From Asticcacaulis sp. (lineage in GTDB: Bacteria; Pseudomonadota; Alphaproteobacteria; Caulobacterales; Caulobacteraceae), in NCBI RefSeq assembly GCF_035497195.1, contig NZ_DATJDZ010000016.1, forward strand, positions 23-64,022: a stretch of DNA of 64,000 nucleotides, written 5' to 3'. Shown in pieces: positions 32,303 through 37,932 of the stretch. The translations under genes were made by a program, and so were the position numbers. The stretch's first letter is position 1. Each line of letters opens with the position of its first letter. The notes beneath the pieces were generated by a model. It searched no databases, had not been told where the DNA came from, and saw only the letters and a program-made list of their open reading frames with translations.

Positions 32303-32453
32303 CCTCCCCTGATATCAGGGGAGGGTGGCGCAAAGCGCCGGGTGGGGTTACAACCGACGTATCAGTTTGCCGTGACGCTGGTAATAACCCCCTTTGTCGC
32401 AAGGGCGACATCTCCCCCTGAAACGAAGTTCGGCGCAACCAAATCAGGGGGAG
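32303..32453. repeat. Cluster of CCTCCCC/GGGGAGG hairpins between convergent genes
   Basis: Perfect 22-nt palindrome cctcccctgatatcaggggagg (32303-32324). ggcgc-aaa-gcgcc (32326-32339). gtcgc..gcgac (32394-32409). Perfect 10-bp arms ctccccctga (32412-32421) / tcagggggag (32444-32453). Confidence 0.8.
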
Positions 32454-32467
32454 TTCTTTAATCAGCC

Positions 32468-33664
32468 TTAAGCCCGCTGGCGCATCGGGTCTTTCTTCAT
32501 GCTGTTGAACAGGCTGGCCTCGAAATCGATCAGCATGTCGGCGAATTCGATATCCTGCAACGGCTTGGCGCCTTTGCGGTTGAGCCGCGCCATACGATAC
32601 TTCCAGAACGACGCGATATGGTTCAGCGTGCCGATCTTGTTGCCCAGTTCGATAAACAGTTCCGAGCCGAACAGCAGGAATTGCCGGAACGGCTCCGGAT
32701 CGCGCCGCACCGCCAGCGCGTGATAGACCTGATCGTAATGATCGAGCGTATCGCGGGCGTCGCTGATGACCTCGACCACGGCCTTGGCGATACGCGGGCG
32801 GGCTTTTTTCAGATAACTGCGCAGGGTTTCATCATAGCTGCCGGACGTGCGATAGCTGCCGAGGCCGCCCAGCACGTCGCGCAGGCCGTTTTGCAGTTCG
32901 ACATGGCACCATTTGTAATAGAGAAATCCGCGCCAGCAGGTGATGCCTTCCTGAAATTCCTCATCGTTCATCCGCAGGGTTTTTTGCAGCGGTTCCAGCG
33001 TCTGGCTCAGCTTGTCCGATAAAATCTTGGCGCCGAGCCGGGTGGCCTCGCGGCTGGTCTTGTCCTGCCCCAGGGCCACATTGACCAGATTCTCGATTTC
33101 ACGCGCCGTGAAGGCCGTCATGGCCTTCAGGTCATGCGCCGAAATCTGAAAATAGACGCCGGACGGGTTGCAGCCGGCCTTGTCGAGGTGTTCGCGCAGC
33201 AGGAAAGGATCAAGAGACGGCAGATCGTCGATCGTGCGCAACAGTTGGGCGTCACGGTTCTTGCCCATATCCTCGATACCGAGATAATTGCGCATCAGCG
33301 GTTCGTATTGGGTCTGGCGCACGAAGAACGACCGGCCGCCCAGACGCAGATCATACGGATCATAGGGCATGATCACCTTGGTGACCGTACGACGCCCGCC
33401 GGGAAAGAGGTCGCGCTCATCCAGCCGCAAAGTGTGCTTGAGAATCAGAGCGCGATTGAGCGCCGAGTGCTCGAACAGGGGCTTGGCGATATAGTCCTCA
33501 TTATCGCGGTAGGTCGTATAGATCTTGGCGAGGTTCAGCACCCGGCAGGACGACCAGGTTCGGTTCAGGTTGGCGAGATTGCGCACTTCACGCGTCGAGG
33601 TGAATTCGCTGTCCGAGACGGCGCGATTCAGGCCGTCGGTAAAGGCCAGACTGGTGCCGATCAT
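32468..33664 (-). CDS. Hypothetical protein, paralog B of an unrecognised ~390-aa family
   Basis: 398 aa, no TM or signal. Shares colinear blocks with the upstream gene product (RVLNL, KHTLR..ERDLF, RRT.TK.I.P.D..DL.LGGRS, LPSLDPFL.REHL, LRM.D.EF..GI..WRGFLY.KW.H.ELQ, YDQ.YHAL, HIASFW.YRM). ATGA start/stop overlap at 33661-33664. Confidence 0.7.
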   Translation of the reverse strand: MIGTSLAFTDGLNRAVSDSEFTSTREVRNLANLNRTWSSCRVLNLAKIYTTYRDNEDYIAKPLFEHSALNRALILKHTLRLDERDLFPGGRRTVTKVIMPYDPYDLRLGGRSFFVRQTQYEPLMRNYLGIEDMGKNRDAQLLRTIDDLPSLDPFLLREHLDKAGCNPSGVYFQISAHDLKAMTAFTAREIENLVNVALGQDKTSREATRLGAKILSDKLSQTLEPLQKTLRMNDEEFQEGITCWRGFLYYKWCHVELQNGLRDVLGGLGSYRTSGSYDETLRSYLKKARPRIAKAVVEVISDARDTLDHYDQVYHALAVRRDPEPFRQFLLFGSELFIELGNKIGTLNHIASFWKYRMARLNRKGAKPLQDIEFADMLIDFEASLFNSMKKDPMRQRA

Positions 33665-34830
33665 CTGCCACTCTCCTCGTCATCGAGCGAAACGACCGAC
33701 AGCGAATCTTCGAAATCCATCAGGATGTCGCCATATTCGAATGGCGTCAGGCGCTGGGTCATCATTTGCTGCCCCATGCGATAGGTCCAGAAAGAGGCGA
33801 TATGACTCAGGATTCCGATGCTTTCGCCCAGTTCAAAAAACAGGCTCGGCCCGTCGAGCAGGAAGCGGCGGAACGGACCGGGATTTTCGCCATGAACCAG
33901 GGCATGATAGGCTTGGTCATAGACATTGAGCGTGCGGCCGACACTGGCGACGGCGTTGACGATCCGGCGCACCAGGCGCGGGCGCACCTCTTTCAGATAA
34001 TCGCGTGTGCCATCATCGCAAGCGCCGATCGGCTGGTAGGTCGACAGGCCGTCCAGCACGCGGCGCATCTCGTCCTGCAATTCGATATGGCGCCATTTGA
34101 AATAGAGGAAACCGCGCCACGAGAAGATGCCATCGGAAAATTCATCGTCCGACATGCGCAGGGTCGATTTCAGCGGCCACAGTTCCGTGTCGAGTTCGTT
34201 GGCGAGTATCTTGCCGGCCAGCTTGATGGCCGATCCGCCGCCAAGCGAACCGGAAAAGGCCGTGCGCACCAGCCGCTCGATCTCTTCATTGGCGAAGCCG
34301 ATCATGCGCTGGATATCATGCGATGAAATCTTGAGATAGCAGGCGCCCGGCCGGAAACCTTGGCGCGCCAGGTGTTCGCGCACCAGGAATGGATCGAGTG
34401 ACGGCAACTGATCGAGCAGGCGCAGGATCTGCACATCGGTATTGGCGTTGATGTCGTCACCGAAATAGCCGCGGCAGAAGGCGTCGAAGCCGGCCTGGTT
34501 GATCAGGATCGAGCGCCCGCCCAGCTTGAGGTCCGTCGCATCGAACGGCAGGATGATCTTGGTGGCCGTGCGGCGATGGCGGCCGAACAGGTCGCGTTCG
34601 TTGGCGCGCAGGGTATGCTTGACCAGGATGCACTTGTTCATCTGCGAGTCGCGGAAGAACGGTTTTAACTGGTAGTCCTTTTCGCGCGCCGAATTGACAT
34701 GAATAGCCGACAGGTTCAGCACGCGGCTCGTCGAGGCCGTTTCACCGAGATTGGCGAGGCTGCGCAGATCGCGGTTCGACAGGGTGTTGCTGATGGGTGC
34801 GCGATTGTCCAGGGCGGCGAAGGCGTTCAT
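33661..34830 (-). CDS. Hypothetical protein, paralog A of an unrecognised ~390-aa family
   Basis: 389 aa, soluble. Roughly 40% identical by eye to paralog B over the full length. ATGA overlap with the upstream receiver gene at 34827-34830. Confidence 0.7.
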   Translation of the reverse strand: MNAFAALDNRAPISNTLSNRDLRSLANLGETASTSRVLNLSAIHVNSAREKDYQLKPFFRDSQMNKCILVKHTLRANERDLFGRHRRTATKIILPFDATDLKLGGRSILINQAGFDAFCRGYFGDDINANTDVQILRLLDQLPSLDPFLVREHLARQGFRPGACYLKISSHDIQRMIGFANEEIERLVRTAFSGSLGGGSAIKLAGKILANELDTELWPLKSTLRMSDDEFSDGIFSWRGFLYFKWRHIELQDEMRRVLDGLSTYQPIGACDDGTRDYLKEVRPRLVRRIVNAVASVGRTLNVYDQAYHALVHGENPGPFRRFLLDGPSLFFELGESIGILSHIASFWTYRMGQQMMTQRLTPFEYGDILMDFEDSLSVVSLDDEESGR

Positions 34831-35753
34831 TGCGCGACCTTTTTGGGGACGGCCTTGCGCGTGGTTTTACGTTTGGTGACGAGCACTTTCAGGTGCCGGA
34901 CAATATCCTGGGCGTCGTCCGGATGGGCATAAGGCACCTCATTGAGCCGGATGAGCGCATCGAGGTGCACGTCAACCACCTCCGGATCGGCGTGATCGCC
35001 AAACAACCGCATATAGTCGTTGAGGGATTGCGCCGCCAGTTCAACCAGCCGCAGGCGGAATGTATGCGCCTCGGCATGGCTCTGCATCAGATCCAGAACC
35101 GTCTGATTAACCGCTTCGACATCGGTTTTTTTGGCGGTTTTATGAGCGGTTTTTTGGCCCGCATGACTTATCAGGCCGCGCAGGGTATTCAGCCCTGTGT
35201 CGATCGGATTCGGCTTGCCATTGCTTTCAGGCCGCCGCAGCAGTCCCGGAAACAGTTGCGCCTTGCGGCGGCGGCGCTCCGAAACGACAGCCTCCGCCAC
35301 CGGTTGACGCTTTTGGGTCAGGGCGGACGAAATGGCCCGCAGCAGGGATGTGGTCGAGAATGGTTTGACGACGAATTCGTTGATGCCCGCGTCACGCGCC
35401 CGCGTCACATCATCAGCGCGCTGGCGCGCCGTCAGCATGACGATCGGCAAGGCGGGATCGGGAATGCGTCCATCCGGTTTAAGCGCCGCCCCACGGATCA
35501 GGGTCACCAGTTCCAGCCCCGACATGCCCGGCAGGTTCCAGTCCAGCAACATGAGGTCGGGCGCCTGGTTTTGCAGGTGTTCCAGGGCCTCTTCGGCGTT
35601 TCGGGCGAAGCTCAGACTGGTGAAGCCGGCGGCGCGCAGCAACTCCACCACCAGGCGGCGCGAGGCGTCATTATCCTCAACGATCAGCAGACTGACCGCC
35701 GTGCAGTTGACCTTTCGCAACAGGCGCTGGGTCTGTGAATGAAGCATGTTCAT
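34827..35753 (-). CDS. Response-regulator receiver protein with an unrecognised ~170-aa C-terminal domain
   Basis: 308 aa. Receiver motifs LLIVEDNDASRRL, phospho-acceptor LMLLDWNLPGMSG, MLTA, VVKPF. These are followed by an Arg-rich linker (SERRRRKAQLFPGLLRRP), a helical acidic/His-rich domain and a basic tail. Confidence 0.8.
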   Translation of the reverse strand: MNMLHSQTQRLLRKVNCTAVSLLIVEDNDASRRLVVELLRAAGFTSLSFARNAEEALEHLQNQAPDLMLLDWNLPGMSGLELVTLIRGAALKPDGRIPDPALPIVMLTARQRADDVTRARDAGINEFVVKPFSTTSLLRAISSALTQKRQPVAEAVVSERRRRKAQLFPGLLRRPESNGKPNPIDTGLNTLRGLISHAGQKTAHKTAKKTDVEAVNQTVLDLMQSHAEAHTFRLRLVELAAQSLNDYMRLFGDHADPEVVDVHLDALIRLNEVPYAHPDDAQDIVRHLKVLVTKRKTTRKAVPKKVAQ

Positions 35754-35807
35754 AGGGTTGAAATTCGTCCGTTGCCCGTCACCATCCCGCAGAATACCGC
35801 AAATCCC

Positions 35808-35853
35808 TTAATTCCGTGTTGACTTATATCTTTGAATTTATGGGAATTTATGG
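35808..35853. promoter_or_regulatory. AT-rich divergent control region: CtrA-like box plus a perfect tandem 10-mer
   Basis: TTAA-ttccgtg-TTGAC at 35808-35823 (one mismatch to TTAA-N7-TTAAC). gaatttatgg gaatttatgg at 35834-35853. The local AT content is far above the window average. Confidence 0.4.
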
Positions 35854-35913
35854 TTACCTTTTATTTACTCCAAATAAACCAGGCCTTAACGCCGGGGGGC
35901 TATACTGACAGGC

Positions 35914-36309
35914 ATGATCCGCAGACAGTTCCTCGCCCTTACCGTCGTTGCCAGCCTTATCGCACCGGCCGCCACCGCTTCCGAACCCAAGAAAAAGGGC
36001 GGTGGCGAAGGCTATACGCAGTTCAACACGATCAATGTATTTACCGAAGCCAGCCGGCGCCGCCACGGTACGCTCAGCGTCGATATGGGCCTCTACAGCG
36101 ATGACGCGAAGCTGGTCGAGCAGATCAGGCTATATCAGCCGCGTTTGCAGGATGCCTATGTCGCGCGGTTACAGGCCTATGCCGGCAGCCTCAATTCGAG
36201 CGCCCTGGTCAATGCGGACTTCATCGTCATGCAACTCCAGACCGCCACGGATGCGATCCTTGGCCGCAAGGGTGCAAAGGTTCTGCTCGGCACGGTTTTA
36301 TTGAACTGA
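35914..36309 (+). CDS. Exported small protein with FliL-like architecture
   Basis: 131 aa. Tat/Sec-like leader MIRRQFLALTVVASLIAPAATA, a Lys/Gly patch, then a layout resembling the FliL C-terminal domain (Y..F..I.V......R...L.V...L......LVE.I....PRLQD... and the ending VLLGTVLLN). The assignment is by eye only. Confidence 0.35.
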   Translation: MIRRQFLALTVVASLIAPAATASEPKKKGGGEGYTQFNTINVFTEASRRRHGTLSVDMGLYSDDAKLVEQIRLYQPRLQDAYVARLQAYAGSLNSSALVNADFIVMQLQTATDAILGRKGAKVLLGTVLLN

Positions 36310-36420: not shown

Positions 36421-36768
36421 ATGAGCACGCCCTCACCCTTTGAAAACGGCCTGCGCCTGATGGCCGATCAGCAGCAGCGCGCCGCGCGCAGCCTGATCAA
36501 CCTGATCGAGATGATCAGCACCACCTCACACCGTTATGCCGAAGATACCGCCGCCTTCACCCAGGAAGCGATCACCCTGATGAACGAGGCCTCCAGAAAG
36601 CGCGATCCGGCATCGGTCGCCGAACTGCAAAAGAAATGGGCCGCCACCTGCCTGAAATACGGCCAGGACCAGACCAAGGCGACCATGACCTTCGTCGAAC
36701 AATGCGGCAAGCAGGCGCTCAATGTCGCCTCCCATGCCCAGGACTCCTCCCCCAAATCCAAGGAATAA
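36421..36768 (+). CDS. Phasin family protein (PHA granule-associated)
   Basis: 115 aa, all-helical, phasin_2-like (FENGLRLMADQQQRAARSLINLIE...). Sits immediately upstream of 3-hydroxybutyrate dehydrogenase. Confidence 0.6.
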   Translation: MSTPSPFENGLRLMADQQQRAARSLINLIEMISTTSHRYAEDTAAFTQEAITLMNEASRKRDPASVAELQKKWAATCLKYGQDQTKATMTFVEQCGKQALNVASHAQDSSPKSKE

Positions 36769-36772
36769 ACTC

Positions 36773-37558
36773 ATGTCATTATCTGGCAAAACCGCGCTCA
36801 TCACAGGCTCCACGAGCGGTATCGGATTAGCCATAGCGACAGGGCTGGCGGCGCAGGGGGCGAACATCATGCTCAACGGTTTCGGCGACGCTGGCGAGAT
36901 CGAGAAAGTCCGCGCCGGACTGGCCGCCGATCACGGCGTCGAGGTGCGCTTTAACGGCGCCGACCTGACCAAGGCGGACCAGATTGCCACCCTGATCAAG
37001 GAGATCGACGTCACGCTCGGCGGGGTCGATATCCTCGTCAACAATGCCGGCATCCAGTTCGTGTCGCCGATCGAGGACTTCCCGCCGGAAAAGTGGGACG
37101 CCATTATCGGCCTCAACCTGACCGCCAGCTTCCACACCACGCGCCTGACCTTTCCCGGCATGAAGGCGAAGAAATGGGGCCGCATCGTCAATATCGCCTC
37201 GGCTCATGCCCTGGTCGCCTCGCCGTTCAAGTCGGCCTATGTCGCCGCCAAGCACGGCCTGCTCGGCTTCACCAAAACCATCGCCCTGGAAGGCGCGGCC
37301 TTCGGTATTACGGCCAACGCCATCTGCCCCGGCTATGTCCATACGCCGCTGGTCGACAAACAGATCCCCGACACCATGAAGGCGCGCAACATGACGCGTG
37401 AACAGGTGATCAAGGAGGTCATCCTGGCCGCCCAGCCGACCGGCGAGTTCGTTTCGGTCGAGGACATCACCGCGCTGGCCGTCTTCCTGTGCTCGGACGC
37501 CGGCAAGGCGATCAACGGCGCCCCCCTCAGCATCGATGGCGGCTGGGTGGCGCAGTAG
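36773..37558 (+). CDS. bdhA: 3-hydroxybutyrate dehydrogenase (SDR family)
   Basis: MSLSGKTALITGSTSGIGLAIA cofactor motif, NNAGIQ, and the catalytic S...YVAAKHG. The track ORF start 36722 overlaps the phasin gene; I prefer ATG 36773. Confidence 0.82.
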   Translation: MSLSGKTALITGSTSGIGLAIATGLAAQGANIMLNGFGDAGEIEKVRAGLAADHGVEVRFNGADLTKADQIATLIKEIDVTLGGVDILVNNAGIQFVSPIEDFPPEKWDAIIGLNLTASFHTTRLTFPGMKAKKWGRIVNIASAHALVASPFKSAYVAAKHGLLGFTKTIALEGAAFGITANAICPGYVHTPLVDKQIPDTMKARNMTREQVIKEVILAAQPTGEFVSVEDITALAVFLCSDAGKAINGAPLSIDGGWVAQ

Positions 37559-37713
37559 AAGGGGCACAGCCCCTGCCTCCGATAATATGATGGCGTTTTC
37601 GAACTCCGGCCAATCCTTACAACTTTTTTATGAATAACAGGCTCCACCCACAGCGCTTCCATATTCTCCCTCCGCCATAGTCCATCACGTCTTGGTGAGA
37701 AGGAATCACAATC

Positions 37714-37932
37714 ATGCGCAATACGTTTAAATTCATCGCTATCGCTGCCGTGGCCGCTGCTTCGCTGTCGGTCGCCGCCTGCTCGAAGCCGGCAGATACA
37801 TCGACCACGACTGAAACCTCGACCGAGGTGACGTCGCCGGCCGTTGACGCCATGGCCCCGATGTCGGAAGCCCCGGCTTCGGACGCCGCCGTTTCGACGA
37901 CGACCACGACGACGACGTCTTCGTCCTCGTAA
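37714..37932 (+). CDS. Small lipoprotein with Thr/Ser-rich low-complexity body
   Basis: 72 aa. Lipobox LSVAAC. Mature part PADTSTTTETSTEV...VSTTTTTTTSSSS. GGA RBS region. Confidence 0.55.
   Translation: MRNTFKFIAIAAVAAASLSVAACSKPADTSTTTETSTEVTSPAVDAMAPMSEAPASDAAVSTTTTTTTSSSS

Follow-up and report, generated by a model that had tools for sequence, protein, structure and literature searches.

A conserved Asticcacaulis operon coupling a putative Cle-type receiver to two paralogs of an undescribed protein family

The window analysed here, a stretch of 64,000 nucleotides from Asticcacaulis sp. (assembly GCF_035497195.1, contig NZ_DATJDZ010000016.1), contains a minus-strand operon composed of a receiver gene (REC) and two paralogous genes, A and B. 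Together with a divergently transcribed gene for a predicted FliL-like protein, this trio forms an Asticcacaulis-wide four-gene module, which is probably linked to the flagellar motor. By its sequence, REC is a Cle-type CheY-like protein, and its Arg-rich region (ARR) is homologous to the region by which Cle proteins bind cyclic di-GMP (c-di-GMP). A and B are members of an undescribed family, here called CC3101-like, that is absent from the curated libraries and the literature searched. A Cle-type module, in which REC responds to c-di-GMP, and possibly to phosphorylation as well, and works together with A and B at the flagellar motor, is considered to have a slightly better than even chance of being correct.

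The REC-A-B operon and its receiver

REC (34827-35753, 308 aa), A (33661-34830, 389 aa), and B (32468-33664, 398 aa) are listed as open reading frames (ORFs) and lie consecutively on the minus strand, joined by two ATGA stop/start overlaps. Both junctions were read directly as '...GCGCAATGAACGCC' and '...GGCAGATGATCGGC', with GAGGAGAG preceding the second overlap, and the coordinates given for the genes in the first-pass annotation are exact. The relation of GC content at third and second codon positions (GC3/GC2) in REC, A, and B is typical of real genes, the genome having 60% GC. The best matches for the window show 95% identity to a Joint Genome Institute (JGI) protein and 90-91% to A. taihuensis. 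The gene order REC, A, B is the same in all 18 Asticcacaulis loci, window included, and the three genes are thus conserved as neighbours in these loci. The REC-A overlap, of 4 nt or 1 nt, recurs in 16 of the 17 Asticcacaulis loci scored and is therefore not due to chance, and the spacing from A to B in these loci ranges from -4 to +109 nt. REC-A-B is a conserved, tightly coupled unit in Asticcacaulis, and its proteins may, as the first-pass annotation proposed, be made in stoichiometric amounts.

The Rec domain of REC comprises aa 23-141 (35331-35687, minus strand; Pfam Response_reg, E 4e-26), and its top PDB sequence matches are CheY. The phospho-acceptor set is intact, consisting of Asp71 within 'LMLLDWNLPG', Glu26/Asp27, Thr108, and Lys130, as expected for the canonical receiver recognised in the first-pass annotation. 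CleD orthologs carry Glu at the acceptor site where REC has Asp71. The residues invariant in the alignment of REC with CleD orthologs are Arg120 (helix alpha4), Lys130, Arg149, Arg160/161, Gly170, and Arg174. Arg120, in 'ARDAG', is the counterpart of the helix-alpha4 Arg of Cle proteins (R113 in CleD, R111 in CleA) and is invariant in the trio receivers as well as in the CleD orthologs.

The Rec domain is followed by an Arg-rich segment, aa 149-177, 'RQPVAEAVVSERRRRKAQLFPGLLRRPES' (35223-35309, minus strand), which appears to be a homolog of the Cle ARR, partly degenerate in the window strain. In Cle proteins, the ARR comprises a tandem [Y/F]xGP[D/E][R/K]R motif and suffices by itself for binding c-di-GMP as an intercalated dimer (Nesper et al. 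2017, PMC5677366). The nuclear magnetic resonance structure of a CleD peptide refined the motif to DRR-x11-(R/K)RxxD (Hee et al. 2020, PMC7382256; PDB 6SFT), the key residues of the CleD ARR being Y150, D154, R155-157, Y163, G165, R167-169, and D172 (PMC7382256). The linker of REC is recognised as a homolog of the Cle ARR because orthologs in other Asticcacaulis show the canonical motif, for example 'YTGPDRRRRRAETYPGLLRRNED', 'FTGPDRRKRRAGLFPGLLRRADD', and 'YVGPCRRRKPDTAYDGPMRRTDD'. A strict form, [YF]xGP[DEC][RK]R...[RK]Rxx[DE], was run as a regular expression over about 950 called genes at 79 loci. It is present in 14 of 17 REC orthologs, and in the whole set it occurs only in receivers that adjoin, or lie a few genes from, a member of the A/B family. 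The window ARR, 'VVSERRRRKAQLFPGLLRRPES', keeps the equivalents of D154 (as Glu), R155, R156, R157, Y163 (as Phe), G165, K168 (as Arg), and R169. In both the window and A. taihuensis, the first repeat of the ARR is degenerate and the final Asp is missing. REC of the window may bind c-di-GMP, with an uncertain affinity.

The C-terminal region of REC, aa 178-308 (34830-35222, minus strand), is helical and carries 'SLNxY...DVHLDALIRLN', which is conserved in the Asticcacaulis orthogroup. It has no Pfam match, and an hhalign profile comparison with the C-terminal region of CleD gave a probability of 0.3%, with no detectable relation. PhoU was its only PDB profile match and is not significant (E 0.27). 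REC is accompanied neither by a recognised output domain (no Pfam or PDB match) nor by a linked kinase gene in the 18 loci. The first-pass annotation saw no output signature in the helical domain behind the Arg-rich linker; the linker can now be assigned as a homolog of the Cle ARR, and the C-terminal region is still without a known domain.

The Cle proteins are the closest known comparison. Their activating input was shown to be c-di-GMP rather than phosphorylation; CleA keeps the acceptor Asp, and phosphorylation was dispensable there while the ARR was required. CleD loaded with c-di-GMP binds the C ring via FliM, and the helix-alpha4 Arg and the core ARR arginines are functionally important. 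Acting at the C ring, Cle proteins slow the motor or give it a bias, and they favour attachment to surfaces. Their C-terminal regions are described as variable. REC has the same composition, with a CheY-like Rec domain, an ARR that is canonical in most orthologs, and a variable C-terminal region. It also has the helix-alpha4 Arg, and a neighbour of the same family is adjacent, as at cleD. REC differs from CleD, but agrees with CleA, in having Asp as the acceptor. Its Rec domain has an insertion of about 10 aa, and its C-terminal region, about 130 aa long, has no relation to the one in CleD. REC also differs in its position upstream of, and in translational coupling to, two paralogs of the family. 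REC is only about 20-30% identical to CleD orthologs, and its ARR in the window is partly degenerate. Motor brakes of the PilZ type (YcgR, DgrA, MotI) resemble the proposed system by functional analogy only, through c-di-GMP-dependent action on the motor; REC, A, and B have no PilZ domain, and the ligand-binding element is different.

The CC3101-like family and its genomic contexts

A and B are 48% identical over 367 aa (E 2e-125). They are the clear paralogs that the first-pass annotation took them for, and its estimate of about 40% identity was too low. Neither has a hydrophobic segment, and both look soluble. A has an isoelectric point (pI) of 6.4, whereas B is basic (pI about 9) and faster evolving. 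Both show the full-length homology of about 370 aa and the eight invariant residues that define the CC3101-like family. In a diverse set of members these residues are R36, T90, K91, G104, D132, D146, W238, and W348, and B retains all eight; the near-invariant polar residues K71, H72, R75, and E78 are also found in the N-terminal domain.

Searches with A and B in Pfam, NCBIfam, PADLOC, and the PDB sequences did not yield a significant match. Scanning 37 diverse family members (27-59% identity) singly, together with a profile search against the PDB, gave nothing significant. Matches to FdsD, V-ATPase_H, MnmH, CspZ, and hexosaminidase are noise, all with E > 0.005. The UniRef name 'DUF1704 domain-containing protein' on one ortholog is reproduced by no Pfam scan. 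The AlphaFold2 (AF2) model of A has a predicted local distance difference test score (pLDDT) of 75.5 and a predicted template-modelling score (pTM) of 0.72. It comprises a disordered N-terminus, a small alpha/beta domain (about residues 35-110) followed by short helices, and four long helices (228-386). Foldseek searches with this model gave a best E of 0.14 in the PDB and 0.04 in BFVD, and the only matches are generic helical bundles with template-modelling (TM) scores of at most 0.24. The first-pass annotation could not place A and B in any known family, and neither profile searches nor, for A, Foldseek placed them in one. Mimicry of the CheY-binding peptide of FliM by the N-terminus of A ('LSNRDLRSLANL') was considered and rejected, the conserved positions being basic R-x-L-R-x-L and not acidic EID.

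The family is large. A as query finds 1,085 clusters at 90% identity, and a Caulobacteraceae member as query finds more than 4,223. At 50% identity there are 736 cluster representatives at E <= 1e-3, with 224 of them below 1e-30. The family is found at no fewer than 566 places in species-representative genomes. Every named member bears the label 'hypothetical protein' and comes from Caulobacterales or unclassified Alphaproteobacteria. Conservation is higher among the orthologs of A, with a mean pairwise identity of 72.8% against 58.0% for those of B, A being higher in 117 of 136 pairs. The B clade is basic (median pI 9.0), while A and nearly all other clades are at about 6.3. These differences are compatible with sub-functionalisation or with charge-complementary pairing, and a heteromer is not proved by them.

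Outside the trio, one context of the family is a gene order of purA, a family member, and a receiver of 267-281 aa. It is found in Caulobacter sp. D4A, in other Caulobacter and Phenylobacterium assemblies, and in a Caulobacteraceae metagenome-assembled genome. The receiver at this place is a CleD ortholog, with Glu at the acceptor site and an ARR that matches the 6SFT peptide (E 1e-16). Synteny in Caulobacter sp. D4A and related genomes indicates that the family member between purA and cleD is very probably CC3101, because CleD is CC3100. The sole mention of CC3101 in the literature searched is as a hypothetical protein in a list of signature proteins of Caulobacterales (Gupta and Mok 2007, PMC2241609). 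The A/B proteins are 40-51% identical to the purA-linked copies, and the members at purA-cleD, probably including CC3101, are likewise soluble, of about 370-390 aa, and without a recognised domain. The genes at purA-cleD differ in being single-copy and in preceding cleD by 37-122 bp without an overlap. The first-pass annotation proposed an undescribed signalling module; the novelty holds for the partner family, and for the module as a whole the closest relative is the Caulobacter purA / CC3101-like / cleD arrangement.

The order of purA, family member, and cleD also occurs in Asticcacaulis sp. AC402 (locus L038), with one gene inserted, and appears to be the ancestral arrangement. In freshwater Phenylobacterium (L060:4360-7137 and L063), an ARR-receiver of 199 aa is located two genes upstream of a family member. 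This receiver overlaps an ORF of 160 aa without a known domain, which is unrelated to the C-terminal regions of REC or CleD. ARR-receivers are thus linked to three separate clades of the family, namely the trio (18 loci), the purA/cleD copies, and the freshwater Phenylobacterium copies. A shares 51% identity with the purA-linked copy of Asticcacaulis. Between the trio REC and the CleD-like protein of that locus, identity is only about 19-25%, and the C-terminal regions are unrelated. This suggests that the trio arose when a duplicate from the family came to lie beside another Cle paralog, and not by duplication of the whole pair, so that recruitment was probably independent and the association of the family with Cle proteins would be recurrent.

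In a neighbour-joining tree, all Asticcacaulis copies fall into one clade, comprising trio A, trio B, the purA-linked copy, and copies from four or more other contexts. This indicates a genus-specific expansion. Strain AC466 (L002, L020, L021) has at least five copies. The Asticcacaulis copies span at least six distinct neighbourhoods (loci L020-L040), and Caulobacter, Phenylobacterium, and Brevundimonas have mostly one copy per sampled locus, as counted by locus and not by genome. A second tandem family pair in Asticcacaulis (L021/L022:2463-8222) is found directly downstream of genes for a PAS-domain chemoreceptor and a GGDEF/EAL protein, without a receiver gene.

The FliL-like neighbour and the shared control region

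The gene divergent from REC (35914-36309, plus strand) encodes a protein of 131 aa whose N-terminus bears a twin-Arg signal or anchor and which is labelled 'Tat pathway signal protein' elsewhere. It has no Pfam match. Its AF2 model (pLDDT 80.6) has FliL periplasmic domains as all of its top 11 Foldseek PDB matches (6AHQ, E 2.9e-4). The Foldseek probability is 1.00, and the target-normalised TM-scores to 6AHQ, 7SGN, and 9HMF_O are 0.65-0.77, those to 7SGN being 0.70-0.76. Chain O of 9HMF is from a Campylobacter motor scaffold, and SPFH/stomatin domains rank after FliL. NCBIfam FliL models weakly match 7 of 15 members, at a best E of 6e-4, which is far below the cut-offs. FssA (CC_1064) was considered as another identity for this secreted protein; what is supported, by the predicted fold, is a FliL-like nature.

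FliL is a stator-associated periplasmic ring protein of the flagellum with an SPFH-like fold (PDB 6AHQ, 7SGN, 9HMF). The neighbour resembles it in the predicted order of strand-strand-strand, two helices, helix, and strand, and in an N-terminal hydrophobic segment. It differs in its length of only 131 aa, its twin-Arg signal-like N-terminus, its position outside a fliLM operon, and an identity of 11-15%, below curated thresholds. The gene is divergently upstream of REC in the 15 trio loci with a readable upstream gene. The same gene is also the divergent neighbour of a family singleton without a receiver in L035 (5372-5791), and in three Brevundimonas loci a FliL-like gene is two to four genes from the family gene.

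REC and the FliL-like gene share a divergent control region (35754-35913) with three phylogenetically conserved blocks, identified by aligning 11 orthologous intergenic regions, one per species. The region has diverged overall, with the three blocks kept across the 11 species. A TTAA-N7-TTTA block (35875-35889), conserved as TTAA-N7-TT(T/G)A, and a GTAACCAT block (35850-35857), conserved as (T/G)TAACCAT, are both CtrA-like and match the published CtrA full-site and TTAACCAT motifs. The third, a CtrA-like TCAA-N7-TTAA block (35808-35822), is conserved as T(C/A)AA-N7-TTAA and followed after about 10 nt by a -10-like element, GCGGTATTCT (35791-35800), conserved as G(C/G)TAnnCT. It looks like a CtrA box that covers a -35 region, with a -10 of the Caulobacter type behind it. 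These blocks suggest CtrA control of the locus; such control, together with a FliL paralog, fits published Cle biology. A sigma-70 consensus scan upstream of the operon gave nothing useful. In the window, a tandem duplication of 10 bp, CCATAAATTC x2 (35834-35853), is not found in the orthologs. The divergent region was initially thought unusually AT-rich. Its GC content is 44%, against 60% for the window, which is only the fifth lowest of 24 intergenic regions and is ordinary for a promoter region.

Proposed mechanism, rival explanations and surrounding sequence

In the proposed mechanism, the genes would be expressed with the swarmer-cell (CtrA) programme. REC would sense c-di-GMP through its ARR and may also sense phosphorylation, because Asp71 is kept. 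It would act at the flagellar motor with A and B as partners or effectors, perhaps as an A/B heteromer, and the C-terminal region peculiar to REC would be the part that A and B partner. Contact between REC, A, and B and their localisation at the motor are parts that we infer. A wider proposal is put forward only tentatively and is rather more likely wrong than right. It holds that the CC3101-like family is a new class of cytoplasmic Cle partners or effectors that bind variable C-terminal regions and pass a c-di-GMP (possibly phosphoryl) signal to the motor or stator with a dedicated FliL-like protein, and that Asticcacaulis has diversified it into a heteromeric A/B and several further paralogs.

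Several observations weigh against the proposed role at the motor. The window ARR is without equivalents of Y150, G152/P153, R167, and D172, several of which matter for the affinity of the CleD peptide, and with such a partly degenerate ARR this strain may have a REC that binds c-di-GMP weakly or no longer at all. The CtrA boxes of the window each have one mismatch, and there is no perfect site. The assignment of the neighbour to FliL is based on a predicted structure (E about 3e-4) and on sub-threshold sequence matches. No flagellar, chemotaxis, or c-di-GMP enzyme gene is found elsewhere around the window locus. Outside the ARR-linked clades, most family members are singletons in unrelated contexts, far from receiver genes. 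These contexts include the Brevundimonas order of a TonB-dependent receptor gene, family gene, and ahcY, several housekeeping sites in Asticcacaulis, and distant alphaproteobacteria. The many singletons indicate that the core function of the family needs no Cle neighbour, and their distance from receivers in many genomes that control by a receiver is not a general property of the family.

An alternative is a module controlled by phosphorylation only, in which a histidine kinase phosphorylates Asp71 and thereby controls an A/B hetero-oligomer, with c-di-GMP and the motor uninvolved. All trio receivers keep the full acceptor set, where CleD has Glu, the window ARR is degenerate, and the translational coupling is tight, all of which favours this explanation. 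However, the ARR is canonical in most orthologs, CleA keeps its Asp and yet requires the ARR and not phosphorylation, none of the 18 loci has a linked kinase gene, and a link to the motor is suggested by the FliL-like neighbour as well as by the paralog at cleD. Phosphorylation control, as suggested in the first-pass annotation, is therefore considered unlikely, c-di-GMP having been shown as the activating input in Cle proteins. It is also quite unlikely that A and B are independent of REC and have a general cellular role, with the adjacency to Cle genes reflecting inherited synteny or co-expression. The many singletons in unrelated neighbourhoods, distant alphaproteobacteria included, would be explained in this way, and the single Asticcacaulis paralog clade would allow the trio to descend from a purA-linked copy. 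Against this independence stand the REC-A stop/start overlap, kept in 16 of 17 species-level loci, and the presence of an ARR-receiver near each of three family clades. The divergence among the receivers, moreover, is much greater than that among the family members, a pattern that speaks for repeated recruitment and against one inherited block.

A and B could otherwise be upstream enzymes that set the input of REC, either as an atypical phosphodonor or kinase or through the turnover of a nucleotide such as c-di-GMP. The invariant polar residues R36, K71, H72, R75, E78, T90, K91, D132, and D146 are all located in the N-terminal alpha/beta domain, as for a ligand or catalytic pocket, and disruption of cleD in Brevundimonas subvibrioides unexpectedly raised c-di-GMP. 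This explanation is nevertheless improbable. No search found any likeness to HisKA, HATPase, Hpt, GGDEF, EAL, or HD-GYP, CleD still has a family neighbour although its acceptor is Glu, and the sampled Brevundimonas loci are without an ARR-type (CleD-like) receiver near the family gene. The weak PADLOC match of the Rec domain to receiver-containing defence proteins is the only signal of a mobile or defence island, and such an island, or spurious ORFs, is hardly credible. The locus matches the rest of the genome in GC and GC3, its chromosomal synteny is kept throughout the genus, and there are hundreds to thousands of full-length homologs, with no PADLOC matches for A and B.

The Cle-type reading bears on the way in which c-di-GMP is known to tune the Caulobacter flagellar motor and to promote rapid surface attachment. 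When cleD was disrupted in the Brevundimonas study, the effects did not follow the level of c-di-GMP. A large hypothetical family of Caulobacterales that adjoins cleD, and is translationally coupled to a Cle paralog, offers, together with the nearby FliL-like gene and CtrA-type motifs, genetically tractable candidates for missing Cle partners, as well as a function-directed entry to an unannotated family of more than 4,000 members. No description of a link of this family to Cle proteins or to the FliL-like gene was found in the literature searched. If the link to Cle proteins is wrong, the family would still be a sizeable unannotated fold restricted to dimorphic alphaproteobacteria.

Two related stem-loops (32303-32324 and 32412-32453) are located between the convergent ends of B and a prolyl oligopeptidase gene. 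Their arms are CCTCCCCTGA/TCAGGGGAGG and CTCCCCCTGA/TCAGGGGGAG, with a common core of CCCCTGA/TCAGGGG, and the pair is the only full inverted-repeat occurrence in the window. The first scores as terminator-like, with a T-rich tail on the minus strand, and both are probably terminators. The repeat hairpins mentioned in the first-pass annotation thus exist, and they stand between convergent gene ends, one of them terminator-like. Rfam and tRNA scans found no RNA genes in the window. Downstream of the FliL-like gene, the plus strand carries a phasin-like ORF (36421-36768) and a short-chain dehydrogenase ORF (36722-37558) that by eye is like 3-hydroxybutyrate dehydrogenase. This polyhydroxybutyrate-related pair (36421-37558) is syntenic in most, though not all, trio loci. 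A low-complexity ORF of 96 aa ('VVVVETAASEAGASDIG...'; 37617-37907, minus strand) lies between the 3-hydroxybutyrate dehydrogenase and ABC transporter genes. It forms a conserved cluster in five Asticcacaulis loci and could encode a genuine small protein or result from ORF calling alone.

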